Assembly: GCA_040905185.1 (NCBI GenBank)
Contig: JBBDRZ010000007.1
Span: 63,817-127,816 of the forward strand
Source: Chloroflexota bacterium
GTDB lineage: Bacteria > Chloroflexota > Limnocylindria > QHBO01
Direction of reading: 5' to 3'
Length of the DNA: 64,000 nt
Shown here: positions 10,277 through 56,942 of the stretch, piece by piece
Numbering within the stretch: the stretch's first letter is position 1
How the letters are laid out: the number at the start of each line of letters is the position of its first letter
The notes under the pieces: model-generated
The model's input: the letters and a program-made list of their open reading frames with translations, nothing else
Database searches by the model: none
Told to the model about the DNA's origin: nothing
Made by a program: the position numbers and the translations under genes

Positions 10277-10280
10277 GCGG

Positions 10281-10619: not shown

Positions 10620-10637
10620 GGCTTCGGGTCCGGGAGG

Positions 10638-10980: not shown

Positions 10981-11100
10981 ACGCCGACCCCCGGAGCCAG
11001 ACGCCCGCCAAACGGGCCGTGCCCGCCCCGGAGGAGCACCAGAATCTCGGATTTCGCCCGGTCCGTGGCTCCCCGCGGCCGGCCTGGAGGCGTCTGTCGA

Positions 11101-13847: not shown

Positions 13848-13853
13848 TGTGAT

Positions 13854-40814: not shown

Positions 40815-42262
40815 GCCGGCAGCCACCCGAGCAGGATGCCGGGGAAGATGCCGAGCAGGAGCACGCCGGCCACGCTGAGCACCAGCGCCAGGCGGCCCAC
40901 TCCGGTGCGCTCCACCTCCGCCGGCTCGGCCTCCGGGTCACGCATGTACATGTAGACCACGACCCGCAGGTAGTAGAACGCGGCCAGGGCGGCATTCAGG
41001 GCGATGGCCACCGCCAGCCAGGCCAGGCCCGCGTCGACCGACGCCAGCAGCACGTACAGCTTGGCAAAGAACCCGACCGTGGGCGGGATGCCGGTCAGCG
41101 ACAGGAGCAGGACGGTCATGGCCGCGGCCAGGGCCGGCTGGCGCCCGGCCAGGCCCGCGAACGACCCCAATCCACCGTAGCGGCGCACGTCGCGCTGAAG
41201 CATGCCGACCACCGCGAAGGCCGCGATGTTCATCACCGAGTAGCCGACCAGGTAGAACACGACCGCCTCGATGGCCTCCCTGGCGACCACCGGATCGGTG
41301 GCCGCCGCAAACGCCGCCAGCCCAGCCAGGATGTATCCGGTATGAGCGATCGACGAGTAGGCGAGCATCCGCTTGACGTTGGTCTGGGTCAGGGCCACGA
41401 CGTTGCCAAACGTCATGGTCACCAGGGCCAGGACCACGAATACGTCCAGCCAGTCGGCGCGCAACGGGCCGAACGCCTCGCCGAAGAGGCGCAGCAGCAG
41501 GGCGAAGGCCCCCAGCTTGGGGCCCACTGACAGGAACCCGGTTATGGGCGTCGGGGCGCCCTGGTAGGCGTCCGGGGTCCAGAAGTGGAACGGCACCGCC
41601 GCCGCCTTGAAGGTCGCGCCCACGGTCAGGAAGCCGATCGCGACCAGCACCGCCCCGTTCATCAAGCCGCCCGAGAACACCTCGGCAATCTCGGTGAACA
41701 CGGTCGAGCCGGTCAGGCCGTACGTCCAGGCGATCCCAAACAGGAGGATGGCGCTCGCAAATGACCCGAGCAGGAAGTACTTCAGCCCACCCTCGTTGCT
41801 GAACCGATCGGTCTTGTGGAAGGCGGCCAGCAGGTAGGCCGGCATGACCATCAGCTCCAGACCCAGGAACAGGGTGATGAGATCCGCGCTGCTGGAAAGG
41901 ACGAAGATGCCCAGGGTCGAGAACAGCAGGATGGCGTTGAACTCGCCCAACGGCAGGCGGCGGACGACCAGGTAGCCCGGCGCGAACAGGGTCGTCAACA
42001 GGCCGATACCGACCGCCGCCAGCTTCAGCACCAGCGCCAGCCGGTCCACGGTGTAGACCCCTCCCGCCAACGCCTCACTGGGCGGGGTGGTCCAGACCGC
42101 GCCGATGGCCAGCGCGGTGGCCGCCAGGCCGGCCACGGTCAGCGGGGTCAGCAGCCACTTGCGCTCCCGGGGCAGGAACAAGTCGACGGTGATAATCACC
42201 AGGACCGAGATGGCCAGCGCCGCCTCGGGCAGGAGTGGGTACAGGGCGGCGGGGTCGTTCAT
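40811..42262 (-). CDS. nuoN: NADH-quinone oxidoreductase subunit N
   Basis: EGGLKYFLLGS, FKAAAVPFHFWTPDAYQGAP, KRMLAYSSIAH. Confidence 0.97.
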   Translation of the reverse strand: MNDPAALYPLLPEAALAISVLVIITVDLFLPRERKWLLTPLTVAGLAATALAIGAVWTTPPSEALAGGVYTVDRLALVLKLAAVGIGLLTTLFAPGYLVVRRLPLGEFNAILLFSTLGIFVLSSSADLITLFLGLELMVMPAYLLAAFHKTDRFSNEGGLKYFLLGSFASAILLFGIAWTYGLTGSTVFTEIAEVFSGGLMNGAVLVAIGFLTVGATFKAAAVPFHFWTPDAYQGAPTPITGFLSVGPKLGAFALLLRLFGEAFGPLRADWLDVFVVLALVTMTFGNVVALTQTNVKRMLAYSSIAHTGYILAGLAAFAAATDPVVAREAIEAVVFYLVGYSVMNIAAFAVVGMLQRDVRRYGGLGSFAGLAGRQPALAAAMTVLLLSLTGIPPTVGFFAKLYVLLASVDAGLAWLAVAIALNAALAAFYYLRVVVYMYMRDPEAEPAEVERTGVGRLALVLSVAGVLLLGIFPGILLGWLPA

Positions 42263-42269
42263 ACCGGTC

Positions 42270-43796
42270 TCACCATGGCCAGGCGACCAGATTGAGCCCC
42301 GCGGCGCTCTGAACCGCCTCCAGGATGCGCTGCACCGGCCCGGCGGTGGCCTCCAGGACGGGGGCCGGGAACACGCCCAGGGCCACGACCAGGACCACCA
42401 GCGGCGCCAGCGACAGCCATTCGACGCGGGTCAGGTCACGCAGCCCGCCCCAGGCCCGGCGCATCCAGTCCGACGGCACCGCGAAGAACGCGCGCTGGAA
42501 CATCCACAGCATGTAGACCGCGCTGGCGATCACCACCAGCATGGCCCAGGCGGCCACCCAGGGGGAGTACTGGAACGCGCCGAGCAGGACGAGGAACTCG
42601 CCCACGAACCCGGACAGCCCGGGGAGGCCGATGGAGGCGAAGATGAACAGCCCGAACAGGGCGGCATAGGCCGGCATCCGGGCGTTCAGCCCGCCCATGT
42701 GGCTGATCATCCGGTCGTGGGTCCGCTCATAGATGACCCCCACCAGCAGGAACAGGGCCCCGGTCGTGATGCCATGGCTGACCATTTGGAAGACGGCCCC
42801 CTGCAACCCCTGGGCATTGAACACGAACGTGCCGAGGATGACGAACCCCATGTGCGACACGCTCGAGTAGGCGATCAGCTTCTTCATGTCGGGCTGCACC
42901 ATCGCCACCAGCGCGCCGTAGACGATGGCCACCAGGGCCAGGCCGATCATGAGTGGCGCGAAGGAGTGGGCCGCATCGGGCAGCAGCGGCAGTGAAAACC
43001 TCAGGAACCCGTAGCCGCCCAGCTTGAGCAGTACCCCGGCCAGGATGATGGAGCCCGCGGTCGGGGCCTCGACGTGAGCATCGGGCAGCCAGGTGTGGAA
43101 CGGCCACATCGGCACCTTGATGGCGAACGCCAGCCCGAACGCGATGAACGCGCCAGCCTGGAGCAGGTCGGGAAACGGGGCGCCGCGGAGGGCTTCGTAG
43201 CTGAACGTGAACGTTCCGCCCGGGAGGTTGGCGTTGGCGATGACCACGGCCAGGATGGCGACCAGCATGAGGAGCGAGCCGACCAGGGTGTAGATGACGA
43301 ACTTCAGCGTGGCGTAGATGCGCTGTGGTCCGCCCCAGATCCCGATCACCAGGTACATCGGGATCAGGCTCAGCTCCCAGAAGACGTAGAACACGAACAG
43401 GTCGAGCGCCACAAAGACGCCGAGCATGCCGGCCATCAGCAAGAGCATCGCGGCGTAGTACTCCTTGACCCGCATCTGGATCGGTCCCCACGAGTACAGG
43501 ATGCTCACCACGCTCAGGACCGTGGTGAGCAGCACCAGCACGGCGCTCATGCCGTCCACCCCCAGCTGGTAGCGGATCCCGAACGCGCTGATCCACGGAA
43601 GGTCCTCGCGGAATTGGAACTCCGCCCCGGCCGGGTCGTACCCCAGCAGGAACAGGCTGAAGCCCAGGCTCACGAGCGCCGCAAGCAGGGCCACCCAGCG
43701 GATGAGCCGATGGTTGGCGCCCGGCACGAACAGCAGGGCCGCCACGCCGAGAAGCGGCGTGAAGACGATCAGCGACAGGACCGGCAGGCCGCTCAT
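42270..43796 (-). CDS. nuoM: NADH-quinone oxidoreductase subunit M
   Basis: FYVFWE, KVPMWPFHTWLPDAHVEAP, KKLIAYSSVSH. Confidence 0.97.
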   Translation of the reverse strand: MSGLPVLSLIVFTPLLGVAALLFVPGANHRLIRWVALLAALVSLGFSLFLLGYDPAGAEFQFREDLPWISAFGIRYQLGVDGMSAVLVLLTTVLSVVSILYSWGPIQMRVKEYYAAMLLLMAGMLGVFVALDLFVFYVFWELSLIPMYLVIGIWGGPQRIYATLKFVIYTLVGSLLMLVAILAVVIANANLPGGTFTFSYEALRGAPFPDLLQAGAFIAFGLAFAIKVPMWPFHTWLPDAHVEAPTAGSIILAGVLLKLGGYGFLRFSLPLLPDAAHSFAPLMIGLALVAIVYGALVAMVQPDMKKLIAYSSVSHMGFVILGTFVFNAQGLQGAVFQMVSHGITTGALFLLVGVIYERTHDRMISHMGGLNARMPAYAALFGLFIFASIGLPGLSGFVGEFLVLLGAFQYSPWVAAWAMLVVIASAVYMLWMFQRAFFAVPSDWMRRAWGGLRDLTRVEWLSLAPLVVLVVALGVFPAPVLEATAGPVQRILEAVQSAAGLNLVAWPW

Positions 43797-43797: not shown

Positions 43798-46035
43798 TCA
43801 GCGCACCACCGTGGCGTAGACCAGCAGCACGATGACCAACCCGGCCGCGATACCCAACCCGTAGTTCTGGACCCGACCGGTCTGGGACCGGCGCAACCCG
43901 CCGCCCAAGCGCTGGGCCAACCAGCCGACGCCGTTCACCGCCCCATCGATGACCTTCACGTCGAACCACCACAGGGCGTTGGAGAGCACCACGCCTCCGC
44001 GGGCGAAGACGAGCTGGTACAGGTCGTCGAAGTAGTACTTGTTCAGGCTGGCCCGATACATCCCAGGTCCCAGCCCGAACGGGATGCGCTGCACGAAGCG
44101 CGCCGGCGCCTCGGGATCCTGGATGTACCAGCGCCGGGCGAGCAGGATCCCGGCCAGCCCGACCGAAGCTCCGGCGAGCAGCAGCAGGCCGCCCAGGCCG
44201 AACAGCTCGAAGCCGTGCGCCTCCCCATGTTCCAGGGCGCCGGCCAGGATCGAGCCGGGCTGGATGCCGGCCCCCAGCTCCTCCGCGCCACGGAACACCT
44301 CCTCGAGCCACTGGTGAATGGCGCCGCCCTCGGGCGGAATGCCCAGCAGCAGCCCGGCCAGCACGGTGGGCACGGCCACGATGACGAGCGGCGCCACCAT
44401 GGTCGGTGCGCTCTCGTGGACGTGGTGCCACGCCGCCGCCGGCCCGCGCCACGCGCCGTGGAAGGTCATGAAGATCATCCGGAAGGCGTAGAACGCGGTC
44501 AGGAACGCGACCCCGATGCCCACCGCCCAGTAGATCGGATAGCCGCGGGCGAATGCCTCCGACAGGATCTCGTCTTTGCTGAAGAACCCCGCGAAGATCG
44601 GGATCCCGGCCAGGGCCAGGGCCCCCACCACCATGGTCCCGTAGGTCCAGCGCATCCGTTCCCGGAGGCCGCCCATGAACCGCATGTCCTGCTCCCCGCC
44701 GGCGCCGTGGATGACCGATCCCGAGGCCATGAACAGCAGCCCCTTGAAAAAGCCGTGGGTCAGCAGGTGGAAGATGGCCGCCACCCAGGCGCCGATGCCC
44801 AGGGCGAAAAACATGTAGCCCAGCTGGCTGACGGTGGAGTAGGCCATCACCTTCTTGACGTCGTTCTGGGTCAGCGCAATGGCCGCCGCCAGGACGGCGG
44901 TGAACACGCCGATGGCGGCGACGACACCCATTGCCTCCGGGGAGTGGGCAAAGATCGGGTTGGCGCGGGCGACCAGGTACACCCCGGCGTTGACCATGGT
45001 CGCGGCGTGGATGAGGGCGCTGACCGGGGTGGGGCCTTCCATGGCGTCGGGCAGCCAGACGTGGAGCGGGAACTGGGCGCTCTTGCCCACCGCACCCGCG
45101 AACAGGAGCAGGGCGATGAGGGTGATATGCCAGCCCTCCAGGCCGCCGATCCCGGCGAACACGTCGTCGAAGGTCAGCGTACCGAGCAGGGTCCAGATCA
45201 GGATCACGCCCAGCCCAAAGCCGAAGTCGCCGACCCGGTTGACGATGAACGCCTTCTTGGCCGCTCCCGCCGCCGACGGCTTCTTGTACCAGTAGCCGAT
45301 CAGGAGGTACGAGCACAGCCCGACTGCCTCCCAGCCGACGTACAGGAGCAGGAAGTTGTCGGCCAGGATCAGCAACAGCATGCTGAACATGAACAGGTTC
45401 AGGTAGGCGAAGAAGCGCCACACGCTGCGGTCGCCGTCCATGTAGCCGATGGAATAGACGTGGATCAGCAGGCCGACCGTGCCGACCACCAGCAGCAGGA
45501 CCGCGGTCAGCGCGTCCACGAAGAACGTGATCTCGATCCGGAAATCGCCCGACACGATCCAGTCGTAGACGGTGACCCGGTACTCGGCGCCTCCGAAGAT
45601 GACCGAGCCGAAGATCGCCATCGACGCCGCCCAGGCCACGGCCACCAGTGCGACCGGGACCCACCACGAGCGGTAGACCGGCCGCGGCCCGCCGGGCCTC
45701 ACGTGACCGGGCTGCCCGCGCCCGTCGTTCAGCTCGTCGGGGATGATCCCATCGGCCCCGTTGGCGTTGGCCAGGTCGTCGGCGTGGCCCCGGTGGGGCG
45801 AGGTCTCGCGCTGCTCCTCCTCGGTCGGGACGCCGCGGTACCCGGACTCGTCGACCGCCTCGGCGTGGGAGGCGTGCGCGTCGCCGCCCGTGTCGTGACC
45901 CGCCCCGGCGCCGTGCTCCTCATCGTGCTCGGCGTGCTCCGGAATGCGGTCGAGGCGCGGCCCAAGCAGCACCGCGAACAGGAAGCCGGCCAGCGGCAGG
46001 GCCGGGATCAGGGCGACGAGCGACTGCAGGTCCAG
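43798..46035 (-). CDS. nuoL: NADH-quinone oxidoreductase subunit L (probable CTG start; His/acid-rich insert)
   Basis: KSAQFPLHVWLPDAMEGPTPVSALIHAATMV. TM1 (LIPALPLAGF) lies upstream of the first GTG and is reached only from CTG 46035, which has AAGGAG 7 nt upstream. Confidence 0.95.
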   Translation of the reverse strand: MDLQSLVALIPALPLAGFLFAVLLGPRLDRIPEHAEHDEEHGAGAGHDTGGDAHASHAEAVDESGYRGVPTEEEQRETSPHRGHADDLANANGADGIIPDELNDGRGQPGHVRPGGPRPVYRSWWVPVALVAVAWAASMAIFGSVIFGGAEYRVTVYDWIVSGDFRIEITFFVDALTAVLLLVVGTVGLLIHVYSIGYMDGDRSVWRFFAYLNLFMFSMLLLILADNFLLLYVGWEAVGLCSYLLIGYWYKKPSAAGAAKKAFIVNRVGDFGFGLGVILIWTLLGTLTFDDVFAGIGGLEGWHITLIALLLFAGAVGKSAQFPLHVWLPDAMEGPTPVSALIHAATMVNAGVYLVARANPIFAHSPEAMGVVAAIGVFTAVLAAAIALTQNDVKKVMAYSTVSQLGYMFFALGIGAWVAAIFHLLTHGFFKGLLFMASGSVIHGAGGEQDMRFMGGLRERMRWTYGTMVVGALALAGIPIFAGFFSKDEILSEAFARGYPIYWAVGIGVAFLTAFYAFRMIFMTFHGAWRGPAAAWHHVHESAPTMVAPLVIVAVPTVLAGLLLGIPPEGGAIHQWLEEVFRGAEELGAGIQPGSILAGALEHGEAHGFELFGLGGLLLLAGASVGLAGILLARRWYIQDPEAPARFVQRIPFGLGPGMYRASLNKYYFDDLYQLVFARGGVVLSNALWWFDVKVIDGAVNGVGWLAQRLGGGLRRSQTGRVQNYGLGIAAGLVIVLLVYATVVR

Positions 46036-46039: not shown

Positions 46040-46348
46040 CTACTCCTTCAGATCGGCGTAGTCGTCGACCTCGGCGGTCTGACGCGTGCGGATGATCGCG
46101 ATGACCAGGGCCAGGCCCACCGTCGCCTCCGCTGCCGCGACGGCCATGACGAGCAGCGCGAAGACGGCGCCGGCGTTATCGGTGGCGTAGTAATCGAACG
46201 CGTTGAACGCCACCAGGGCCAGGTTGACGGCGTTCAGCATGAGCTCGATGCAGATCAGCATCATGATCGCGTTGCGTCGGGCCAGGAAACCGAAGGCCCC
46301 GATCCCGAACAGGGCGAGTGACAGGAACAGGTAGCCGTTGAGGCCCAT
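46040..46348 (-). CDS. nuoK: NADH-quinone oxidoreductase subunit K
   Basis: RRNAIMMLICIELMLNAVN, AAAEATVGLA. Confidence 0.97.
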   Translation of the reverse strand: MGLNGYLFLSLALFGIGAFGFLARRNAIMMLICIELMLNAVNLALVAFNAFDYYATDNAGAVFALLVMAVAAAEATVGLALVIAIIRTRQTAEVDDYADLKE

Positions 46349-46351: not shown

Positions 46352-46861
46352 TCAGTTCATCCGCTCGTCTTCTTCGGGCCGCCGGGCCAGGTAGATGGCG
46401 CCGATGATGGCGGCCAGCAACAGGAAGCCCACGATCTCGAACGGCAGCGCGTAGTCGTTGAAGATGGCGGCGGCCAGGGCGTCGAGCTCAACCGGGATGA
46501 TCACGCTGGGGTTGGGCCAGTCGGTCTGGAGCAGGGCCCATCCGACGAGGGCCACGATCCCGATGGCGACCAGGGCTGCGAAGGGCGCCTGCCGCTGGAA
46601 GGGTGCCGGCAGGTTGGCGTCACCGGCCTGGGTCAGCATGATCGCGAACAGGATCAGGACGCTGATGGCGCCCAGGTAGATGAGGACCTGGGCAGCGGCC
46701 ACGATGGGCGCGCCGAGCAGGGCGTAGGTGCCGGCCAGGGCTCCGAAGGAGACCATCATGGCCACCGCGGAATGGATCACGTTCCGCAGCAGGACGGCCG
46801 CCAGGCCGCCGCCCAGGACGCCGGCGGCGAGCACCACGAAGAGGACGGTCGAGATGTCCAG
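46352..46861 (-). CDS. nuoJ: NADH-quinone oxidoreductase subunit J (probable CTG start)
   Basis: AQVLIYLGAISVLILFAIML, YALPFE; GGGAG SD 8 nt before CTG 46861, with an in-frame stop 11 codons further upstream. Confidence 0.93.
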   Translation of the reverse strand: MDISTVLFVVLAAGVLGGGLAAVLLRNVIHSAVAMMVSFGALAGTYALLGAPIVAAAQVLIYLGAISVLILFAIMLTQAGDANLPAPFQRQAPFAALVAIGIVALVGWALLQTDWPNPSVIIPVELDALAAAIFNDYALPFEIVGFLLLAAIIGAIYLARRPEEDERMN

Positions 46862-46925: not shown

Positions 46926-47771
46926 CTACGGCAAGAGCTGATCTCCCTCGCGCCCGGCGGTCACCTGCAGGCCGTTGGCGGTGGACGCGGCCAGAGTGGC
47001 GGCGTCCATGGCCAGGACGTCCATCTGGTCGTCGGTTCGTGCCGGATCGTGGTGGAACAGGACCAGCTTGCCGACCTGGGCGCGGCGCGCGAAGGCGATG
47101 GCCTCGGCGACCGATGAGTGGCCCCAGCCCAGCCGCTCGGCACGCTCTTCGTTTGTGTATTGAGCGTCGTGGATGAGCACGTCCGCCCCGCGCGCCAGGC
47201 GCAGCCCGCTCACCCAGGATGTGTCGCCATCTCCGTCACTCGTCCCCAGAGCCGGCTCGTGGTCGCTCAGGTAAGCCAGCGACTGGCCGTTCCCGGTGAT
47301 GCGGTAGCCGAGCGTCGCCCCCGGATGGATCACCTCGTCAGCCCGGATCGTGAACGGACCGATCCGGAACGGCTCCTCGGGGGCGTCATGGAAATCGAAG
47401 TTGGCGCGCAGGTCGCGCAGCCGAATCGGGAACAGCGGCGGGGAGAGGTAGCGGGTCAGGCGCGCCCGCAGGTGTAGGGTCGGCGAGGGCGGGCCCCAGA
47501 TGTGGATCTCGCACCCGCGCCGGAAGATGGGCGCAAAGAAGCCCAGCCCCTGGATGTGGTCCATGTGGAGGTGGGTGAGGAGGATGTCGATCCGCCCCGC
47601 CTCCATCGCGACCTCGGCGCCCAGACGCTGGATGCCGGTCCCCGCGTCGAGGACAAGCAGCGTCCCATCGTCGCCGCGCACCTCCACGCAGGCCGTGTTG
47701 CCGCCATAGCGCGCAGTCTGGGGGCCGGCGGCGGCCACCGACCCGCGGGTGCCCCACAGGCGGACGATCAC
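46926..47771 (-). CDS. MBL-fold metallohydrolase (phosphodiesterase/RNase Z-like)
   Basis: WGTRGS, YGGNTAC, DAGTG, THLHMDHIQG, DAQY, WGHS, FHHDP. Confidence 0.9.
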   Translation of the reverse strand: MIVRLWGTRGSVAAAGPQTARYGGNTACVEVRGDDGTLLVLDAGTGIQRLGAEVAMEAGRIDILLTHLHMDHIQGLGFFAPIFRRGCEIHIWGPPSPTLHLRARLTRYLSPPLFPIRLRDLRANFDFHDAPEEPFRIGPFTIRADEVIHPGATLGYRITGNGQSLAYLSDHEPALGTSDGDGDTSWVSGLRLARGADVLIHDAQYTNEERAERLGWGHSSVAEAIAFARRAQVGKLVLFHHDPARTDDQMDVLAMDAATLAASTANGLQVTAGREGDQLLP

Positions 47772-48172
47772 GCCTCGGGGGACTCCCAGAACATCGTCAC
47801 CGAGCCCATCACGTCGCCGTGCCCGCCGGTCAGCGGGAAGGCGGTGACGCCGATCCGGCGCGCGACGCCGTCGCCGCCCGTGATCTCGATCGTGGCGTGA
47901 GCCGGACGGCCCTGGCGCAGGGCGATGATCGGAGGCAGCTCTTCCCTGGGCAGCGGGTTTCCGGACTCGTCCCGGGGGCGGAAGGACGTGGTCCAGGTCT
48001 CGAACGGCATCTGGTCCACGTCGTCGGCCCGCACGCCGAGGGTGGGCTCGGCCGCCTCGTTGAAAAAGACGAGATCCCCCTCGCCGTCGATGACCCACAT
48101 CGGGATGGACAGGTGCTCCGAAAGCTGGCGGAGGAGGATCATCTCGATCGGCTGCTGGGGGAGATCGGTCAT
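47768..48172 (-). CDS. Stand-alone PAS-domain protein
   Basis: MWVIDGEGDLVFFNEAAEPTLG PAS N-motif; GTGA-coupled to the MBL hydrolase; TATCCT 7 nt before the ATG. Confidence 0.85.
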   Translation of the reverse strand: MTDLPQQPIEMILLRQLSEHLSIPMWVIDGEGDLVFFNEAAEPTLGVRADDVDQMPFETWTTSFRPRDESGNPLPREELPPIIALRQGRPAHATIEITGGDGVARRIGVTAFPLTGGHGDVMGSVTMFWESPEA

Positions 48173-48489: not shown

Positions 48490-50886
48490 TTAGCGGGTGG
48501 GGCGCTCCCGGTCGGACATCTCCAGGATGTCGAGCATGGGCAGGTCGCGCTGGTACTCGCTGAACTCGAACTCCGGGCCGCAGCGCAGCGCGTCGTAGGG
48601 ACAGGCGTCGGCGCAGATGCCACAGAAGATGCAGCGGCTCACGTCGAGCTGGTAGGTCTCCAGGATGCGCGGCCGCGGCATGAGCGCGCCGACCGGGCAC
48701 GTCTCCGCGCAGCGCCCGCATGACACGCACGGGGTCTCGTTCAGCGAGACGTAATCGGCGGTCGTAACCAGCGAGTCGAAGCCCTTGCCGATGAAGTCGT
48801 AGCACCCGGCGCCCACGATGTCCTTGCACACCTGGGCGCATCGGCCGCAATCGATGCAGCGCGAGTAGTCGCGCAGGATGAACGAGTGGGTCTCGTCCCG
48901 GCCGTAGCCGTGGTTGATGCCGACATACGGGTTGTCCTGGATCGACCGCTCGTCGATCGTCATGTTCAGGGTGGTCTCGTACTCGATGGCCGCCTCGCGC
49001 AGGTCGCAATGGCCGATCGCTTCGCACGTGCACTGGAGGCAGCGGGCGGCCTCGCCCATGGCCTGGTCGTGGGTATAGCCGTGCTCGTACTCCTCGAAGT
49101 TCGTGCGCCGCTCCTGAGCGCCCAGCTTGCCCATCACCGCCTGGGGCTCCTTCACGTCGTCGGTAAAGGGCACGATGGTCAGGAACGACGGCTGCGGCTC
49201 GGACACGACGCGCCGCACCTGCGGGTCGTCCAGGTCGTGGCCGCGGAGCCAGTAGTCCATGGCATACGACGCCCGCCGCCCGTCGCCGATAGCCTCGACC
49301 ACGGTTGTCGCCCCCAGGTTCACGTCGCCGGCGGCAAAGATCTTGGGGATCCCGGTGCGGAACGTGTTCGCATCGGCCACCAGGCGCCCCTGGCGGCTGA
49401 CCTCCAGCCCGGAGCGGATCTCGTCCGGCTCGGAGTCGATCCATGACAGCTCCGGTCCCTGGCCGATCGCCCCCAGCACGGTGTCACACTCGACAATGAA
49501 CTCGGTGCCGGGCATGGGCTCCGGTCGGCGGCGCCCCTTCTCATCGGGCTCGCCCAGGTGCATCTTCTGGAATTCGACCCCGGTCACCTTGCCTTTGGCA
49601 TTGGTCACGACGCGGACCGGAGCGGCCTGGAAGATGACGGTCGCGCCCTCTTCGATGGCCTCGTGGACCTCGTCCTGGGAGGGCATGTCCTTCAGGTCGC
49701 GGCGGTAGACGATGGTCACCGCCTTCGCCCCCTGGCGGAGGGATGTCCGGGTGCAGTCGATAGCCGTGAACCCGCCGCCGATGACCACCACTCGGGCCCC
49801 CTTCAGGGCGGGGACCGGGACGCCCCGCGTGCTGTTGTACAGGTTCTCCAGCGCGTTCACGGTGCCGTCCGCGAACTCCTCGGGAATCCCCATCTCGTTG
49901 GGCTTGTAGCAGCCGATGCCCACGAAGATGGCGTCATAGCCCTGCTCGACCAGATCGGCCAGGTGGAAGTCGCGGCCCAGGCGCATGTTCGGCTTGAAGG
50001 TGGCGCCCAGCTCCCAGACGTGGTTCAGCTCGCGGTCCATCCAGCCCTTGGGCAGGCGGTACTCGGGGATCCCGTAGCGGAGCATGCCGCCCTGCTCCGG
50101 ATCGGCCTCGAACACGTCGCAGTGATGCCCGCGCAGCTGGAGGTAGTAGGCCACCGTCATGCCGGCCGGTCCTGAACCCACGATCGCCACCCGGCGCCCG
50201 GTGTCCGATTCCTTGGGCCACGGCAGGGGGGCCGGCGCATCCACCTCCAGCACCCGGTCGGCGCAGTACCGATGCGAGTCGCGGATCGCAATGGCGGTGT
50301 CCACTTCCTCGCGCCGGCAGTGGGTCTCGCACGGGGCGGGGCACACCCGACCTAGGATGGCGGGGAAGGGGAGCGAGCGCTTCAGGATGCGGGTCGCCTC
50401 TTCCCAGTTGCCCTCCGCGTTGGCCTTCAGGTAGCCGGGGATGTCGACCCGGGTGGGGCACTTGAACTGGCAGGGCGGCAGGCAGTACGCGTCGTGGTCC
50501 GAGAAGATCAGCTCCAGCACCAGGCGGCGGTTCTCGATGACCCGCTCCGAGTGGGTGGTGATGACCATCCCCTCGGTGATCTGGGTGCCGCACGAGATGG
50601 GCGTGTTGTCCTGGCCCTCGACCTCGACCACGCAGATGCGGCAGGCACCGTAGGGCGACAGCTTGGGCTCGTAGCACAGGGTCGGGATCTCGAGCCCCAG
50701 CACCCGGCAGGCCTGGAGGATGGTCTGGCCCTCTTCGGCCTGGACCTGGCGGCCGTTGATCGTGACCGTGATCTTGCGCGTGCCGGGCACCACCGGCCAG
50801 ATGGGCGCGTAGTCCTCCAGGCGCCCCAGGGTGGCGCCATCGTCCTTGCCGTTGCCCTTCCCATTGCCGTTGCCCACGAAGGTCAT
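48490..50886 (-). CDS. Fusion of NuoG-like N-terminal Fe-S domains, a GltD-like FAD/NADPH domain, a 2x[4Fe-4S] ferredoxin and the C-terminal half of NuoI
   Basis: [2Fe-2S] motif IPTLC..GACRIC..SC; HDAYC; PPCQFKCP and GRVCPAPCE; GSGPAG; GGGFTAIDC; YRR; CLQCTC..HCDL; CIDCGRCAQVC; CVSCGRCAETCP; then YQLDVSRCIFCGICADACPYDAL..GPEFEFSEYQR. Confidence 0.9.
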   Translation of the reverse strand: MTFVGNGNGKGNGKDDGATLGRLEDYAPIWPVVPGTRKITVTINGRQVQAEEGQTILQACRVLGLEIPTLCYEPKLSPYGACRICVVEVEGQDNTPISCGTQITEGMVITTHSERVIENRRLVLELIFSDHDAYCLPPCQFKCPTRVDIPGYLKANAEGNWEEATRILKRSLPFPAILGRVCPAPCETHCRREEVDTAIAIRDSHRYCADRVLEVDAPAPLPWPKESDTGRRVAIVGSGPAGMTVAYYLQLRGHHCDVFEADPEQGGMLRYGIPEYRLPKGWMDRELNHVWELGATFKPNMRLGRDFHLADLVEQGYDAIFVGIGCYKPNEMGIPEEFADGTVNALENLYNSTRGVPVPALKGARVVVIGGGFTAIDCTRTSLRQGAKAVTIVYRRDLKDMPSQDEVHEAIEEGATVIFQAAPVRVVTNAKGKVTGVEFQKMHLGEPDEKGRRRPEPMPGTEFIVECDTVLGAIGQGPELSWIDSEPDEIRSGLEVSRQGRLVADANTFRTGIPKIFAAGDVNLGATTVVEAIGDGRRASYAMDYWLRGHDLDDPQVRRVVSEPQPSFLTIVPFTDDVKEPQAVMGKLGAQERRTNFEEYEHGYTHDQAMGEAARCLQCTCEAIGHCDLREAAIEYETTLNMTIDERSIQDNPYVGINHGYGRDETHSFILRDYSRCIDCGRCAQVCKDIVGAGCYDFIGKGFDSLVTTADYVSLNETPCVSCGRCAETCPVGALMPRPRILETYQLDVSRCIFCGICADACPYDALRCGPEFEFSEYQRDLPMLDILEMSDRERPTR

Positions 50887-50896
50887 CGGTCCAATC

Positions 50897-52243
50897 CTAT
50901 GACGCCAGCGGCGCGAGCAGCGGGGAGACCGGGTCCGTCTTGCACGAGCCGGCCAGGCAGACGCCCCGCTCGGCGTGGGCGCGGTACTCGTCCGCGAAGC
51001 GATCCAGGGTGGTCAGCATGGGGCGTGGGGCAAGAGACTCGAGGCGGCACAGGGCGGTGTCGGCGATCTTGGCCGACAGCTCACGGAGCAGGACCAGGTC
51101 GTTGGGACGCGGCGTGGCGGCCAGGATGCGGTCCAGGGCCTCCACCAGGCGCAACGGACCGATCCGGCACGGGACAGCCTTTCCGCACGCTTCGCGCGCG
51201 GAGTAGTCCAGCAGAAAGCGGGCCGTGGCCACCATGCAGGTGGCGGCGTCGGTGACCAGGACCGATCCCGAACCGATGTGGGCGCCGGCGGCGCCCAGCG
51301 CGCCATATTCGTAGCCCGTGGCGGACAGCTCGTCGGCTGCCAGGGCGCCGGCACCCGGTCCACCCACGAACGCGGCCTTCACGGTCCCGGTCGAACCGCC
51401 AGCCAGCTTGACGATGTCCGCCACCGGGGTGCCCATGGCCACCTCGGCCAGGCCCGGGTTACGCACCGCGCCGGCGATCGTGACCAGCTTGGTGCCCGGC
51501 GCCTCCTCGGGCCCGACCTTCGCGAAGTCGGCTGCCGAGTGACCCAGGATCCACGCCACGTGAGCCAGGGTCTCGCCGTTGTGGACGAGGGTCGGGACGC
51601 CCCACAGCCCGCGCTCGGCGGGGTACGGGGGGCGGATGAGCGGCATGCCGCGGTCGCCCTGGAGGGCGTGGATGAGAGCCGTCTCCTCCCCCGCCACGTA
51701 GGCGCCGGAGCCTTCCCATACCGACACCTGGACCGATACGTCGGTGCCCAGGATGAGGTAGCCCGCCAGGTGCGCGGCCTCGGCGTCGGCCACTGCCTTG
51801 CGGAGACGTTCGATGGCGGCGGTCCAGTCGCGGCGCACGGCCAGGATGGCCTCGGAGGCGCCCACCGCGGCGGCCGCGATGATGAGGCCCTCGAGGACGA
51901 GATGCGGGTTGCCCTCGGCCAGCGCCCGGTCACCCAGCGAGGTCGGGTCGGCGCCCATCAGGTTCGCGACCGCGATCTTCCGCTCGTCGGGCGCGGAACG
52001 AGTGGCGCGCCACTTGTCGGCAACCGGGAACCCGGCGCCCCCTCGGCCGCGGAGGCGGGACGCGAAGATCTCGGTGATGACCTCGTCGGGGGAGAGCTTG
52101 GTGATGGCGCGGGTCAGGCCGCGGTAGCCCCGGGCCTTGCGGTACGCATCCAGCGATTCGGCGTCCAGCTTCCCGATCCCGGCCAGCAGGCGCTGCTCCC
52201 CGCCGGGGAGGATCCGGATCTGCGGAGAGAGGCCGGCCGCCAT
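50897..52243 (-). CDS. nuoF: NuoF-like subunit with degenerate motifs
   Basis: LRGRGGAGFP, GAYVAGEETAL, PPYP and NGET retained; NADEG(E/D)P replaced by NLMGADP; CGKAVPC lacks one N3 Cys. Confidence 0.85.
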   Translation of the reverse strand: MAAGLSPQIRILPGGEQRLLAGIGKLDAESLDAYRKARGYRGLTRAITKLSPDEVITEIFASRLRGRGGAGFPVADKWRATRSAPDERKIAVANLMGADPTSLGDRALAEGNPHLVLEGLIIAAAAVGASEAILAVRRDWTAAIERLRKAVADAEAAHLAGYLILGTDVSVQVSVWEGSGAYVAGEETALIHALQGDRGMPLIRPPYPAERGLWGVPTLVHNGETLAHVAWILGHSAADFAKVGPEEAPGTKLVTIAGAVRNPGLAEVAMGTPVADIVKLAGGSTGTVKAAFVGGPGAGALAADELSATGYEYGALGAAGAHIGSGSVLVTDAATCMVATARFLLDYSAREACGKAVPCRIGPLRLVEALDRILAATPRPNDLVLLRELSAKIADTALCRLESLAPRPMLTTLDRFADEYRAHAERGVCLAGSCKTDPVSPLLAPLAS

Positions 52244-53070
52244 CAGGCCCCCGCCCGTGCCTTCTCGGCCCGACGGGCGTAGATCAGGTGGCGTGCCTCG
52301 TCCACGTTGAGCGGCCCGTAGACCAGGGTGTCGATCCGCACCGCCGGCGCAATCGCGCCCGCTCCCACGCTCGCATCGGTCTCGAGCGTGAACGCGCCGT
52401 CATCGGTCGTCTCGCCGGCTCGAACGCCCAGCTCCTCCTCCAACGCCGCCAGCAGCTTGTCGCCCCCCGCGAAGCGGCACGCGGCGCAGTCACACACCGT
52501 CACGAGATGCCCTTCGGTGGGCAGCAGCCGGAAGCCTCCCAGCCCGGCGGCCCCGAAGACCTGGGCCCAGTGGATCGTCATCCGGTCGCTGATCCGGCGC
52601 AACGCCGGTTCCGGCAGGTAACCGTATCGGGTCTGGACCGCGACGAAGATGGCCACCAGCGACTCGGGCCGACCACCGAACCCGTCGATGACCTGGTCCA
52701 CCCAGGGGGTGTCCACCGCTTCCTCCCAGCGCGCCGCGTTGCGCATCGGTCTGGACGGAAGGCCGGCCCGCCGGAAGGCGTTCGGATCGCGGCGCTCGTC
52801 GTAGATCTCGGGCAGCCCGTATCGGATCTTGTTGCCCTGCGAGTCGAAGCCGCTCATGTCAATTGCTTCCACCGGGCACACCATGGCGCACTGGAAGCAA
52901 ACCTCGCACTTGTGCTCCCCGAACGGGTCGTAGATGAGGTCCAGCCGCCCCCGCCAGCGCTCGGCCATGGCCGGGCGCACCTCGGGGTACTGCTGGGTCA
53001 CCTTGGGGCGGAAGAGGTTGCGCAGGGTGACGCCCATGCCGGTGAGCAGGCCGGAGCCGGGGATCGCCAT
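52243..53070 (-). CDS. Fusion of the N-terminal half of NuoI and a degenerate NuoE-like domain
   Basis: GMGVTLRNLF..VTQQYPE..RWRGR..KCEVCFQCAMVCP (only one ferredoxin motif), then VQTRYGYLP..VCDCAAC..DDGAFTLE..SVGAGAIAP. Confidence 0.9.
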   Translation of the reverse strand: MAIPGSGLLTGMGVTLRNLFRPKVTQQYPEVRPAMAERWRGRLDLIYDPFGEHKCEVCFQCAMVCPVEAIDMSGFDSQGNKIRYGLPEIYDERRDPNAFRRAGLPSRPMRNAARWEEAVDTPWVDQVIDGFGGRPESLVAIFVAVQTRYGYLPEPALRRISDRMTIHWAQVFGAAGLGGFRLLPTEGHLVTVCDCAACRFAGGDKLLAALEEELGVRAGETTDDGAFTLETDASVGAGAIAPAVRIDTLVYGPLNVDEARHLIYARRAEKARAGA

Positions 53071-53081: not shown

Positions 53082-54101
53082 TCACAGCTTGAAAATCAGG
53101 ACCACCGCGGCGGTCACGAACAGGTTGATGAGCGCCAGCGGCAGGAGCGCTTTCCAGGCCATCCCCATCAGCTGGTCCACGCGCACGCGGGGCAGGGTGG
53201 CCCGCACCCAGATCGCGATGAACACGAAGATGTACGTCTTCAAGAAGAACCAGACCAGGCCGTATACGGTGCCGGCGAAGCCGTCCAGCTGGGCCGGGAA
53301 GGGCCATGGCGCCAGCCACCCGCCGAAGAAGAGGGTGACCAGGATGCCGCACATGATGAAAAGTGCGACGTACTCCGCAAAATAGAAGAAGCCGAATCGC
53401 ATCCCCGAGTACTCGGTAAACGGCCCGGCCACGATCTCTGAATCGGCCTCCACCATGTCGAACGGGGTGCGGTTGATCTCGGCGGCGGCGGCGATGAAGA
53501 AGATCGGGAAGCCGACCAGCTGCCAGATGACCGCCCAGCCGTGCTCCAGCTGCCATTCGACGATGTGGGTGAAGGACAACGTCCCGGTCAGGACCACCAC
53601 GCCCACGATGGACAGGGTCAACGGGATCTCGTAGCTGACCATCTGGGCCGCGCTCCGCAACCCGCCCAGCAGTGCGTACTTGTTGTAGCTGGCCCACCCC
53701 GCGACCAGCATCCCGACCACCGACAGACCGATGATGGCGAAGAAGAAGATGACGCCGATGTCGGAGTCGAAGGCCACCAGCCCCGGCGCGAATGGGATGA
53801 CCAGCATGCTCATGGCGGCCGCCATGAACACCATCCACGGAGCCAGGGTGAAGACCGGCACGTCGGCTCGATCCGGCGTCTGGTCCTCCTTGGCCAGGAT
53901 CTTGAAGCCGTGGATCGCGCTCTGGAACATCCCGCGCGGGCCCACCCGGTTGGGGCCGTAGCGGAGCTGCATGAGGGCGATGATCTTGAGCTCCAGCTGG
54001 CCCACGATAAACGCGGTCGGCACGGTCAGCAGCAGGAGCAGGGTGGTGGCCGCCACGAAACGGCCGACGCCGAGCAGGGTTTCGACGAATGCCGGATCCA
54101 T
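53082..54101 (-). CDS. nuoH: NADH-quinone oxidoreductase subunit H
   Basis: RYGPNRVGPRG, KYALLGGLRSAAQMVSYE, EINRTPFD..EA..E, EYSG, RATLPR. Confidence 0.97.
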   Translation of the reverse strand: MDPAFVETLLGVGRFVAATTLLLLLTVPTAFIVGQLELKIIALMQLRYGPNRVGPRGMFQSAIHGFKILAKEDQTPDRADVPVFTLAPWMVFMAAAMSMLVIPFAPGLVAFDSDIGVIFFFAIIGLSVVGMLVAGWASYNKYALLGGLRSAAQMVSYEIPLTLSIVGVVVLTGTLSFTHIVEWQLEHGWAVIWQLVGFPIFFIAAAAEINRTPFDMVEADSEIVAGPFTEYSGMRFGFFYFAEYVALFIMCGILVTLFFGGWLAPWPFPAQLDGFAGTVYGLVWFFLKTYIFVFIAIWVRATLPRVRVDQLMGMAWKALLPLALINLFVTAAVVLIFKL

Positions 54102-54110: not shown

Positions 54111-55391
54111 CTACTTGTCCACGCCGCCCATGATCGGATCCAGGCTGGCCATGATCGCCATGGTGTCGGCGATGAGATGCCCGGGCATGAGCTTGGGCAT
54201 GACCTGGAGGCTGATGAAGCTCGGATCGCGCATCCGGAACCGATACGGGTTGGGGCCGCCGTCACTGATGGCGTACACGCTGTACAGCCCGCGGGGCGAC
54301 TCGATGGCCGCATAGGCCCGTCCCGGGCGAGGGCGGATGATCCCGGGCACCTGGGCCTGCACCGGGCCGTGGGGCATCTTGTCCACGATCTGGTCGATCA
54401 GGTGGATGGACTGCTTCAGCTCCGCGATGCGCTGCATGTAGCGGGCGTAGGTGTCCCCCTCGGTGTGGGTGATGACGTCGAACTCCAGCTCGTTGTAGAT
54501 GCAGTACGGGTGCGCCTTGCGGACGTCGAACGGCACGCCGCTGGCCCGCAGGTTGGGGCCGCTGACGCCCAGGTCGATGGCCTGCTTGGCGGTCAGGGTG
54601 CCCATGCCCCGAGTCCGGGCTCGGAAGATCTCGTTCTCGGTCAGGATCTTCTCGTTCATCTCGATCGTGTCCAGCACGTTGGCCCGCCAGCGACCGAGAC
54701 GAGACATGAACTCGTCGTTGGTGTCGAAGTTCACGCCCCCCACCCGGAAGAAGTTGAACAGCATCCGCTGACCCGAGATGGCGGCCAGCATTTCCACCAC
54801 TTCGTCGCGGTTGATGAAGCCGTACAGGATGGGGGTCAGGCCGCCGATGTCGAGCGCCAGGAAGCCCATCATCAGGCCATGGCTGAACACCCGGTTCAGC
54901 TCCACCACCAGGGCCCGGATGTATTCCGCCCGGCGCGGCGCATGGATGCCGTACAGCTTCTCGAACGCGATGGCCGGCGCGTGCTCGTTGTGCATGGCCG
55001 ACATGTAGTCCATGGGGTCCACGTAGGTCAGGACCGTGGTGTAGGTGGCCTCCTCGCACAGCTTCTCGATCCCGCGGTGCAGGTAGCCGAGCACGGGGTC
55101 GATGTCGATGACCACCTCGCCGCGGACCTTGAGCACCAGGCGCATCACGCCGTGGGTGGACGGGTGCTGGGGGCCCATGTTGACGAGCATCTCGCCGTCG
55201 CCGAGGGTGTAGACCTCCTGCTCGCGCTCGGTCTGGGGCGGCCGGTCGGGGGGCGGGACGATGTCGAAGCCGAAGAACTCCTGGCGCGGCGCGGCGGTGG
55301 CCATGGCGTCCAGGGCAATGGGATCCGGGATGCGCGGCTCGTCCGGGTCGGCCGGCGGCTCGGGGGCGGGGCGCGACCTGGTGGTCGTCAC
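54111..55391 (-). CDS. nuoD: NADH-quinone oxidoreductase subunit D
   Basis: NMGPQHPSTHGVMRL, GYLHRGIEK, ESPRG, C-terminal DPIMGGVDK. Confidence 0.97.
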   Translation of the reverse strand: MTTTRSRPAPEPPADPDEPRIPDPIALDAMATAAPRQEFFGFDIVPPPDRPPQTEREQEVYTLGDGEMLVNMGPQHPSTHGVMRLVLKVRGEVVIDIDPVLGYLHRGIEKLCEEATYTTVLTYVDPMDYMSAMHNEHAPAIAFEKLYGIHAPRRAEYIRALVVELNRVFSHGLMMGFLALDIGGLTPILYGFINRDEVVEMLAAISGQRMLFNFFRVGGVNFDTNDEFMSRLGRWRANVLDTIEMNEKILTENEIFRARTRGMGTLTAKQAIDLGVSGPNLRASGVPFDVRKAHPYCIYNELEFDVITHTEGDTYARYMQRIAELKQSIHLIDQIVDKMPHGPVQAQVPGIIRPRPGRAYAAIESPRGLYSVYAISDGGPNPYRFRMRDPSFISLQVMPKLMPGHLIADTMAIMASLDPIMGGVDK

Positions 55392-55966
55392 ACCGGGCCT
55401 CCGGGCTCGTCGCGGTGCGCGGCCGCGTCATCAAGCTTGCCCAGGTCCCACGTTTCGGGCCGCTCCAGCGGGCGGTTGCCTGCGGCCGCGGAGTCGGCGG
55501 CGTCATCGGGGAGCAGGAAGTCCTTGCGCTGCGGGAAGGACCGGTAGTCGGGCGACATGTAGATCCGCCGCAGGTCGCGGTTGCCCTCGAAGACGATGCC
55601 CATCATGTCGTACATCTCGCGCTCGTGAAACATCGCCCCCTCCCACAGGGAGGTGATGGTGGGCGTCACGGGGTTCTCGCGGTCGACCTTGACCCGGACC
55701 CGCAGCCAGGTCGGGTGGCGGTCCGAGTACAGGTGGTAGACGACCTCGAACCAGTTGCCGACGCCGTAGTCGACCGCGGCCGCATCGGCCAGGAAGAAGA
55801 AGCCGAAGTCAGCGTCGTCGCGCAGGGTGCGGAGCGACTCGACGATCTTGTCGCGGGGAACCTGGATCTCGACCGTGTCCTCGTCGGTCCACAGGTCGCT
55901 CGCCGCGTCGGCGAGGCGTTCGCTCAGCAGCCGGACCAGCGGGCCCGCCGCGGCCGGTGCGCTCAG
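55388..55966 (-). CDS. nuoC: NADH-quinone oxidoreductase subunit C (probable CTG start)
   Basis: [32 protein letters not shown]; CTGA overlaps the nuoB stop, with GAAGGAG 7 nt upstream. Confidence 0.93.
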
Positions 55967-56592
55967 CGCACGTCTCCTTCCCAGGATCGGAGGTCCGGTC
56001 CCCGGTCGGCATACGTGCCCCACTGGCCGCGGCGCTGCTTGACCAGCTCCTGGAGCTTCATCATCCCGTAGATCAGCCCCTCGGGCCGCGGCGGGCAACC
56101 CGGCACGTAGACGTCCACCGGCATGACTCGATCCACGCCCTGGACAACGCTGTAGGAACGCTTGAAACGGCCTCCGGAGGTCGTGCAGGTGCCCATCGCT
56201 ACGCACCATTTCGGCTCCGGCATCTGCTGCCACAGGCGCACCAACGGCCCGGCCATCTTGGTGGTCAGGGTGCCGGCCACGATCAGGACGTCGGCCTGGC
56301 GCGGCGAGGCGCGGAAGGGGAACATCCCGAATCGGTCGATGTCGTTCACGCTGGTGGCGGTGCTCATCATCTCGATGGCGCAGCACGACAGGCCCGACAG
56401 GAGCGGCCACAGGGAGTTGGCCCGGATGAGGTCCAGGATGTAGTCGGCTCGGGTGGGGATGACCTCCAGCAGGCCGTGGAAGCCACCCTGCGGGTGGTTC
56501 TCCATCCCGAACTCGCCCAGCAGTGGGTCGTCGCCGGCGGCGTCGGGGATGACGATCGGCTCGTCAGCGCGGGGAGGGGTCGTTATCGCCAT
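55963..56592 (-). CDS. nuoB: NADH-quinone oxidoreductase subunit B
   Basis: [37 protein letters not shown]. Confidence 0.98.
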
Positions 56593-56942
56593 TTCAGGTC
56601 ACCCTTCTTCCAGGCGTAGAACTCGCCGTACATCAGGACCACCAGGAAGATGCCCATCAGGATCATCCCAGTGAGGGTGAGGTCGCGGATCACGATCGCC
56701 CAGAGGTAGATGAAGATGATCTCGACGTCGAAGGCCACGAAGAGCAGGGCGTACAGGTAGAACGCCAGCCCGAACCGGGACCAGGTGTCACCGATGGTGT
56801 CGATCCCGCACTCGTAGGGCAGCCCCTTCTGGGCCTCTTTGCGCCGATGGGTGATCAGCCACGAGAACAGGATCGTGCCGAACACGAAGGTCGTGGCGGC
56901 CAATCCGAATCCCAGGACGTAGAGCAGCCCGGTCTGGTCCAT
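56583..56942 (-). CDS. nuoA: NADH-quinone oxidoreductase subunit A
   Basis: [21 protein letters not shown]. Confidence 0.97.

Follow-up and report, generated by a model that had tools for sequence, protein, structure and literature searches.

A conserved complex I operon of Limnocylindria in which NuoI is split between two proteins around a predicted Nfn/Stn-type cassette

We analysed a 64,000-nucleotide stretch of DNA, here called the window, from a soil and sediment bacterium of the Chloroflexota (Limnocylindria, QHBO01; assembly GCA_040905185.1, contig JBBDRZ010000007.1, positions 63,817-127,816, forward strand). Its minus strand encodes a complex I operon with the order nuoA-B-C-D-H-X-F'-Y-(PAS, MBL)-J-K-L-M-N (56942 down to 40811), where X, F' and Y form a three-gene cassette and are followed by a PAS-domain and a metallo-beta-lactamase-fold (MBL) open reading frame (ORF). 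X and Y each carry one half of NuoI. The halves are complementary, collinear and non-overlapping, and they stand at the nuoI position between nuoH and nuoJ. This split NuoI is a real, strongly conserved variant of complex I, not a misassembly. The operon is probably the organism's only complex I, in a reduced, non-bifurcating NAD(P)H:quinone form with a Bfu-type cassette inside nuoI.

The two halves of NuoI

The cassette and its domains are as follows.

52243..53070, minus strand: X, 275 residues, NuoI N-half and NuoE-like part (ORF)
52822..53070, minus strand: X residues 1-83, NuoI N-half with amphipathic helix, TQQYPE and the first CxxCxxCxxxCP motif (TIGR01971)
52699..52821, minus strand: X residues 84-124, linker (alignment A1)
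52243..52698, minus strand: X residues 125-275 and stop, NuoE/HydC-like domain (PF01257 at 125-263, E 4.3e-25)
50897..52243, minus strand: F', 448 residues, NuoF/BfuB core (Pfam; aligned to 8oh5_B)
48490..50886, minus strand: Y, 798 residues, large subunit and NuoI C-half (ORF)
50452..50778, minus strand: Y residues 37-145, NuoG/HydA-type [2Fe-2S] domain and HxxxCxxxCxxxC motif (PF13510, E 1.5e-21)
49240..50481, minus strand: Y residues 136-549, GltD/NfnB-like domain (PF14691, PF07992; PRK12814, E 1.1e-166; aligned to 9bov_A and 8oh5_C)
48682..49059, minus strand: Y residues 610-735, CxxCxCx5C motif and HydA/Nqo3-type 2x[4Fe-4S] ferredoxin domain (PF22117, Fer4; 9bov_A alignment)
48490..48681, minus strand: Y residues 736-798 and stop, NuoI C-half, second CxxCxxCxxxCP motif then GPEFEFSEYQR (TIGR01971)

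Matches to NuoI were scored with the NCBIfam model TIGR01971, which has 121 positions and a whole-protein cut-off of 113.05 bits. Profile positions 1-72 are covered by X residues 11-83 (E 5.9e-14, 51.7 bits) and positions 71-112 by Y residues 740-781 (E 7.4e-15, 54.6 bits); neither protein reaches the cut-off, and no single polypeptide of the operon is a NuoI by this model. X has TQQYPE at residues 25-30 and a single CxxCxxCxxxCP at 55-66 (C55, C58, C61, C65), followed by a linker in which Y90, R93 and A98 are unchanged throughout 20 aligned orthologues. The cysteines of the NuoI half of Y are C752, C755, C758 and C762, and two further CxxCxxCxxxC motifs precede it, at 677-687 and 720-730. An initial annotation of the window had placed these ORFs at the same coordinates and in the same order, and had read X as the start of NuoI with one cysteine motif followed by a NuoE-like part, and the third ferredoxin motif at the end of Y as the second half of NuoI. 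The hidden Markov model scan that it proposed for both proteins bears out each of these points.

Intact NuoI proteins align with the same division. X residues 7-77 are 46% identical to residues 11-81 of the intact NuoI of a related genome (L109), and Y residues 740-776 are 46% identical to its residues 92-128. The Nqo9 subunit of the solved complex I of T. thermophilus is aligned by X over residues 6-71 and by Y over 86-126. When the NuoI fragment of Y was compared with the PDB, the best single-stretch matches were NuoI chains at 50-54 bits; polyferredoxins outranked these only by summing many weak repeats, each of about 23 bits or less. As another origin for the third motif of Y we considered a remnant of the cluster of the StnC/NfnA FdhF domain, and rejected it: the 9bov_A alignment is gapped and poor there, and one stretch of a NuoI chain outscores any polyferredoxin repeat.

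The absence of an intact nuoI, noted for the operon in the initial annotation, extends to the whole genome (2.18 Mb, 8 contigs, metagenome-type assembly, 94.8% complete). There the profile search gave eight matches, none above the cut-off, and the best two were the halves on X and Y. Genes of the nuoF-like, nuoG-like and nuoB kinds each occur just once in the genome, within this operon. Among 41 genomes of the class, including the unpublished G015 and G021, an intact NuoI above the cut-off was present in only one (G039).

Structure prediction was also applied to the two halves. A complex prediction of X residues 1-112 and Y residues 736-798 with two [4Fe-4S] clusters, for which controls were not run, scored 0.27 in both runs against a mark of 0.32 and gives no verdict either way. 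AlphaFold2 models of the single proteins, from 20-row alignments in the case of Y, gave predicted local distance difference test (pLDDT) values of about 80-94 for the NuoE domain of X and below 50 for its residues 22-113; in Y only the GltD domain was confident, and residues 597-798 fell below 50. Because the HydA-type domain, which is folded in homologues, also scored below 50, the low confidence of the NuoI halves carries no information.

Identity of the cassette

The domains and alignments mark the inserted cassette as a Bfu module of the Nfn/Stn type; its nearest counterparts among solved enzymes are the NfnABC/StnABC transhydrogenases, and it is not plain NuoEFG. Y residues 37-762 align with Bfu large subunits: 9bov_A (E 9.4e-169), 8oh5_C, which is StnC (E 2.6e-146), and 9n5u_A, which is NfnA (E 2.6e-139). 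Every cluster ligand of the [2Fe-2S] region (37-145) is invariant. The GltD domain contains two [4Fe-4S] motifs, a GxGxxG site for flavin adenine dinucleotide (FAD) and a GGGFTAID...YRR dinucleotide site, and GxGxxG, GGGFTAID and YRR are retained in all Y sequences counted. All cysteines of residues 610-735 are likewise invariant (52/52, 8/8 and 3/3 sequences). The FdhF-like C-terminal domain is missing from Y, which ends about 36 residues past the aligned region and has the NuoI half instead, starting about 20 residues beyond the last HydA-type ferredoxin motif. The GltD part of StnC is described as binding FAD and NADPH and as bearing the NADPH:viologen activity of Stn, and the FdhF-like domain (residues 683-1172) as inactive, with its clusters C1 and C2 judged to lie outside electron transfer (PMC10482914).

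The models for canonical subunits fit the cassette in part. F' scores 326 bits with the NuoF model (cut-off 558.65 bits), and the NuoG model covers Y only at profile positions 1-95. The initial annotation had taken Y as NuoG/HydA-type and the cassette as E-F-G-type, inserted into nuoI and fused in frame at both ends. The scaffold it named is present in Y, but the description was incomplete, a GltD-like FAD/NAD(P)H domain being inserted at about 136-549; insertion and fusion are supported, while the cassette appears to be of the Nfn/Stn type with a GltD domain. A second GltD-like ORF lies on the same contig outside the window (G000:C7:197783-199597), with a Fer4_20 match, ferredoxin motifs and a frame of about 690-705 residues (L003, L004).

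Altered bifurcation sites in X and F'

X residues 117-264 are matched by NuoE/HoxE models, and the C-terminal domain aligns best to small subunits of the HydC/NfnC type. Its C1 [2Fe-2S] site keeps C193 and C198, with Ser234 and Gly238 at the third and fourth ligand positions. Within the Limnocylindria family labelled f1 (the others are f2 to f4) the third position is Asp, Glu, Asn or Ser and the fourth is Gly, and both cysteines are gone in 81/81 sequences. The same 81 sequences all have CxCxxC (C193, C195, C198), of which C195 is additional when compared with HydC-type proteins; this domain may hold a re-ligated cluster or another metal site. The thioredoxin-like part of NuoE is wholly absent from the X' proteins of f2 and from two f3 loci (L105:9695-10336 and L106:7454-8101), where X is only 214-216 residues long. 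It appears to have been lost more than once.

F' aligns to 8oh5_B, 9bov_B and 9n5u_B over residues 106-524 of 584 only. It lacks the N-terminal thioredoxin-like and the C-terminal 2x[4Fe-4S] (B3/B4) domains of BfuB, its last domain being NADH_4Fe-4S. In the N3/B1 motif, CGKAVPC, Ala takes the place of the second Cys in 72/72 f1 sequences; this position is Thr, Ser or Cys in f3 and f4, and Cys in 4/4 f2 sequences. Thus the F' of f2 has all four B1 cysteines although the accompanying X' lacks the thioredoxin-like half. GRGG.G, GEETAL, GGP, GSG and three cluster cysteines are retained in 72/72.

In Bfu enzymes the bifurcating site is the flavobicluster B1-FMN-C1 (FMN, flavin mononucleotide), and ferredoxin is reduced via B3/B4 (Li et al. 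2025, PMC11829005); C1 and B3/B4 are needed for ferredoxin reduction in Stn and Nfn (PMC10482914, PMC11829005). The window has neither a BfuB with a B3/B4 domain nor a B1-FMN-C1 flavobicluster with full ligands. Because these bifurcation-specific parts are absent or degraded, we read the Limnocylindria module as a reduced, non-bifurcating descendant of an Nfn/Stn-type enzyme. Input from NADPH, and possibly from NADH, without bifurcation is the mechanism with the best support in this lineage.

Conservation and selection

With one genome scanned per species, 334 relatives of X emerged, from which 80 loci were kept, most titled Candidatus Limnocylindria or Chloroflexota and a few otherwise. Sequences failing to span the reference were excluded before conservation was counted. 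Synteny of the two fusions in related genomes, a check named in the initial annotation, holds in 80/80 loci, whose orders are all sub-strings of A-B-C-D-H-X-F-Y-(MBL)-J-K-L as far as contigs reach. nuoH precedes X in 79 and F follows it in 79; Y is present in 72 and reaches its NuoI half in 59, and nuoJ is next in 42, the shortfalls arising because contigs end. Median identity to the window within the family is 86% for Y, 77% for X and 70% for F'. The NuoI cysteine motif of X is invariant (81/81 in f1, 8/8 in f3 and f4, 1/1 in f2), as are the cluster cysteines of Y including those of its NuoI half (52/52, 8/8 and 3/3); that half as a whole is nearly invariant in the family.

Ratios of nonsynonymous to synonymous substitution rates (dN/dS), calculated against 6 of the 80 loci, are 0.02-0.15 for X, 0.06-0.21 for F' and 0.07-0.10 for Y, with 0.06-0.23 for nuoD and nuoH. 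X, F' and Y are under purifying selection similar to that on nuoD and nuoH. The initial annotation had also proposed mapping reads across both junctions, for which we used Logan contigs of relatives from soil and sediment runs (150-390 bases). A few of these bridge the X junction (e.g., run X6 record 24, 52563-52860). None of those listed fully spans the Y junction; X5 record 9 covers 48634-48780 and ends at the first Cys of the NuoI motif. Contigs of one metatranscriptome library, X23, lie on Y with 88-95% likeness, which does not demonstrate transcription in this strain.

Distribution in Limnocylindria

X is full-length in 14/17 sampled genomes of the genus and in 6/7 from other genera of the family (13/16 and 5/6 without the unpublished G015 and G021). 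X-type proteins occur in 33 of 301 Chloroflexota genomes, namely the organism's own, 14/14 of f1, 16/16 of f3 and 2/2 of f4; none was found in the other sampled Chloroflexota families of this set at E <= 1e-25. Gene order is identical in 8/8 loci fetched from f3 and f4.

The sister family f2 has its complex I genes in two separate clusters, nuoB-nuoD-X'-F'-Y' (L107, L108, L110) and nuoA-C-H-J-K-L-M-N (L111, L112). X' covers NuoI positions 1-66 and Y' positions 69-111, and the peripheral-arm cluster is without nuoC. Intact NuoI is absent from four of the five f2 genomes checked. The fifth, G039, encodes the split-NuoI set and, roughly 18 kb away on the same contig, a canonical nuo operon of 14 genes (L109, G039:C21:82000-101900). 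The canonical operon includes an intact NuoI (142.6 bits), and the genome has two more NuoH matches.

A second lineage and other fusions

A search of 1.84 billion protein cluster representatives gave only 22 proteins at E <= 1e-30, together with more distant full-length fusions of the NuoI N-half to NuoE in which the NuoE cysteines are intact. For one protein of this type, P0149, the clustered protein collection contains 1095 relatives at E <= 1e-30; another search gave 110 on metagenome contigs, from which 80 loci were kept (L113-L192; GC content 0.64-0.70, varied sources). The order A-B-C-D-H-X-F-Y-J-K-L-M(-N) was found in 11/11 long loci examined among these 80. At L114 (e.g., 9001-14201), X combines NuoI positions 2-66 with a NuoE above the equivalog cut-off, F is a full 646-residue BfuB with thioredoxin-like domain, CNGDEGDPGAF, CGKCVPC and C-terminal 2x[4Fe-4S], and the C-terminus of the 831-residue Y is NuoI positions 69-115. 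This second, larger lineage thus has a split NuoI with a predicted complete Bfu core (intact NuoE, full BfuB). Two NCBI-named members are labelled Thermoleophilia bacterium, and most have no organism label.

Further proteins in which a NuoE domain is joined to a ferredoxin-type motif or to other domains are P0176 (280 residues, single CxxCxxCxxxCP), P0201 (a 566-residue membrane protein), P0207 (801 residues) and P0216. As a fusion, the P0176 type was not found in the 301 Chloroflexota genomes, in which only its NuoE part was matched (query residues about 84-280).

Proposed mechanism and alternatives

We propose that an operon of the 11-subunit type, A-B-C-D-H-I-J-K-L-M-N, acquired a three-gene NfnABC/StnABC (Bfu) cassette inside nuoI, and that in-frame fusion at both ends would have left the N-half of NuoI at the head of X and the C-half at the tail of Y. 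The two halves would co-fold into one NuoI-like 2x[4Fe-4S] domain. A ferredoxin fold of the 2x[4Fe-4S] kind ligates each cluster with three Cys of one motif and the fourth of the other; because the halves are on two proteins, N6a and N6b would very likely be ligated across the X-Y interface, either cluster drawing three Cys on one polypeptide and its fourth on the partner. The joint domain would fix the input module onto NuoB, NuoC, NuoD and NuoH. Electrons would pass from NADPH to the FAD of Y, through the Fe-S chain of Y and its HydA-type 2x[4Fe-4S] domain to N6a/N6b, and on to N2 in NuoB and quinone, with protons pumped by NuoL, NuoM and NuoN. We infer both this path and the direction of flow. 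F' retains core motifs for FMN and NADH, and it may still add electrons from NAD(H) or trade them with it.

Several points weigh against this reading. The specificity of Y for NADPH rather than NADH is putative, by similarity to StnC, and the contact between X and Y is proposed from sequence. The genome also encodes PntB (G000:C7:341391-342755, outside the window, 600 bits); because the two coexist, an NADPH-oxidising complex I is not needed merely for pyridine nucleotide balance. The FMN loop of F' reads NLMGADP, against NADEGDP in the aligned Bfu B subunits, and its [4Fe-4S] site has three of four Cys, so that any binding of FMN or NADH by F' is putative. Finally, four f3 genomes have ORFs of 143-168 residues with weak full-span NuoI-like matches of about 44-54 bits to TIGR01971, below the 113-bit cut-off (G028:C99:7522-7806, G034:C2:99755-100024, G036:C6:50472-50726 and G038:C5:1198416-1198673). 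These may be ferredoxin subunits of other complexes.

The NuoE part of X and F' could be mere scaffold from a Bfu ancestor, with the GltD domain of Y the sole entry to a complex I that depends strictly on NADPH. Of the three proteins Y has the highest conservation, the acidic residues of the FMN loop are replaced, and one B1 and two C1 cysteines are lost. F', however, is under purifying selection like that on core subunits and keeps GRGG.G, GEETAL, GGP, GSG and three cluster cysteines throughout f1, and we consider a purely structural role unlikely.

The homology of the cassette to bifurcating NfnABC/StnABC raises the further idea that the window enzyme is a true electron-confurcating Nuo-Bfu, in which NADH and reduced ferredoxin (and NADPH) would together power the reduction of quinone and the pumping of protons. 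Confurcation has been predicted for Bfu modules located within nuo operons (Schut et al. 2022, PMC9304861), and the Thermoleophilia-labelled relatives retain a complete BfuB and intact NuoE. In Limnocylindria, however, C1 lacks two of its four Cys and B1 has only three in every f1 sequence counted, and the thioredoxin-like part is entirely gone in f2 and in two f3 loci. Since Stn and Nfn depend on C1 and B3/B4 to reduce ferredoxin (PMC10482914, PMC11829005), confurcation by the window enzyme is improbable.

The separate clusters of f2 could be taken to mean that the half motifs are unpaired, X-F'-Y being a separate soluble oxidoreductase and the membrane complex working without NuoI; the X-Y contact is putative, and the B-D-X'-F'-Y' genes of f2 are apart from those of the membrane arm. 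The f2 cassette nevertheless travels with nuoB and nuoD, the membrane-arm cluster is without B, D and I, and four of the five f2 genomes have no other NuoI. Each half on its own offers four Cys whose spacing calls for a partner motif, the other two motifs of Y form a pair of their own, like those of HydA and StnC, and the NuoI-specific N-terminal helix and TxxYPE are retained. In complex I, no electron path from a donor to N2 is known other than through N6a/N6b. We hold unpaired halves to be very improbable.

An assembly artefact or a decaying gene, which a metagenome-type assembly in 8 contigs might invite, has a negligible chance of being correct given the same fusions in 80 independent loci (some on contigs of hundreds of kilobases to 2 Mb), the 110 relatives of the second lineage, dN/dS far below 1 and contigs of other studies that bridge the X junction.

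Beyond the preferred reading of the window enzyme as a non-bifurcating complex I, a broader picture can be offered tentatively and is rather doubtful as a whole. A complex I clade over at least two phyla (Limnocylindria, and Actinomycetota labelled Thermoleophilia) might have recruited an Nfn-type NADPH/NADH/ferredoxin module into nuoI, separately from the recruitment of NuoEFG and at another site, with N6a/N6b at a heterodimer interface. The Thermoleophilia type would couple NADPH/NADH/ferredoxin confurcation to quinone reduction and proton pumping, and the Limnocylindria type would be a streamlined proton-pumping NADPH:quinone oxidoreductase.

Remaining genes of the operon

The other genes of the operon are as follows.

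56583..56942, minus strand: nuoA (NCBIfam NuoA models, E 1.9e-22)
55963..56592, minus strand: nuoB, with all four N2 cysteines (CC, C, C; PGCPP in the translation) (TIGR01957, 221.9 bits, above cut-off)
55388..55960, minus strand: nuoC, 190 residues; a longer ORF to 56410 would overlap nuoB (PF00329, E 1e-37; TIGR01961)
54111..55391, minus strand: nuoD, complex I type with GPQHPSTHG and without NiFe cysteines (NF004739, 423.8 bits, above cut-off)
53082..54101, minus strand: nuoH (NF004741, 323.8 bits, above cut-off)
47768..48172, minus strand: PAS-domain ORF, 134 residues, between Y and nuoJ (PF13188, E 2e-6)
46926..47756, minus strand: MBL ORF, about 276 residues, between Y and nuoJ (PF12706, E 4e-22)
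46352..46837, minus strand: nuoJ (NCBIfam NuoJ models)
46040..46348, minus strand: nuoK (NF004320, 106.2 bits, above cut-off)
43798..45972, minus strand: nuoL (NF005141, 707.7 bits)
42270..43796, minus strand: nuoM (TIGR01972, 603 bits)
40811..42262, minus strand: nuoN (TIGR01770, 428.1 bits)

The Q-module is complete, with N2 ligands in NuoB, NuoC, and a quinone-type NuoD without NiFe cysteines, and all seven membrane subunits (A, H, J, K, L, M and N) are matched by NCBIfam Nuo models. nuoD runs directly into nuoH, with no canonical NuoE-F-G between them. The start codons of nuoD and nuoL are uncertain: NuoD has a proline-rich N-terminal extension of about 65 residues, and the NuoL match begins only at residue 104, leaving about 100 residues ahead of it. 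The gap between Y and nuoJ ranges from 157 to 4005 bases across related loci, and the MBL gene is present in only 6/80; this spot seems to tolerate insertions.

Relation to known systems

Canonical NuoI (Nqo9, TYKY, NDUFS8) shares with the window the N-terminal helix, TxxYPE, both CxxCxxCxxxCP motifs, the FEF..R end and the place between nuoH and nuoJ. It is a single polypeptide in every complex I structure matched here, whereas in the window it is on two, with about 3.9 kb of inserted coding sequence between. StnABC/NfnABC (8oh5, 9n5u, 9bov; PMC10482914, PMC11829005) have the same three-subunit set, with [2Fe-2S], GltD-like FAD/NADPH and HydA-type clusters in the large subunit. They differ in that the window's large subunit has the NuoI C-half in place of the FdhF-like domain and its NuoE-like subunit bears the NuoI N-half. 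The window's B subunit, moreover, is without both extra cluster domains, C1 and B1 are incomplete, and the genes are in a nuo operon, whereas Stn and Nfn are soluble enzymes.

The predicted Nuo-Bfu complexes likewise have a Bfu-type module in a complex I operon in place of NuoEFG, which is proposed to supply quinone reduction and proton pumping. They are described with 14 subunits, A to N, from Deferribacteres, Proteobacteria, Planctomycetes and Nitrospirae, and Mbh-Bfu complexes are also predicted (Schut et al. 2022, PMC9304861). The window differs in having the cassette at the nuoI position, a split NuoI, a large subunit with a GltD domain, and an F' without the ferredoxin-type domain used in that paper to define BfuB. 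The words 'NuoI', 'fused' and 'fusion' do not occur in the available main text of PMC9304861, supplements not included.

Mbx-like operons encode another complex I relative to which an NAD(P)H flavoprotein of the GltD type is attached directly where NuoI would sit; a gltD-related flavoprotein there takes the place of NuoI (Degli Esposti 2015, PMC4758237). The corresponding profile, PRK13984, has a NuoI-like match at positions 19-70 and a GltD match at 198-608, and this union in one model points to a single polypeptide; parts of the profile are matched by X residues 17-73 and by Y residues 139-549. Compared by profile and description only, this system differs in having no NuoE or NuoF partners and an unsplit ferredoxin fold. 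The 11-subunit 'ancestral' complex I, reported in Chloroflexi and Actinobacteria (Moparthi and Hagerhall 2011, PMC3144371), has the same backbone, A-B-C-D-H-I-J-K-L-M-N, with nuoD adjoining nuoH; the window operon differs from it in having gained an input module, at nuoI rather than at the E-F-G position.

We found no description of a split NuoI in open-access papers and preprints, supplements not covered, in agreement with the initial annotation, which knew of no described complex I of this design. The available parts of PMC3144371, PMC4758237, PMC9304861, PMC9326234, PMC6741124 and 10.1101/2021.02.01.429150 do not mention one. As far as these open-access papers and preprints reach, the split-NuoI complex I is undescribed.

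Implications

In public annotation, orthologues of X are called 'NAD(P)H-dependent oxidoreductase subunit E' and have PF01257 as their sole Pfam assignment. Because such annotation sees only 'subunit E' in X, metabolic reconstructions would score these genomes as lacking nuoI and nuoG and their complex I as incomplete. If N6 clusters are indeed assembled between two proteins, this bears on Fe-S insertion, on the order of assembly and on docking of the input module. The insertion into nuoI would be a second way in which evolution equipped an 11-subunit complex I with a pyridine-nucleotide module, and the two lineages offer a built-in comparison, the predicted Bfu core being complete in one and stripped down in the other. 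These findings suggest NADPH-linked proton-pumping respiration in lineages that were recovered here from many soil, sediment and freshwater metagenome records.

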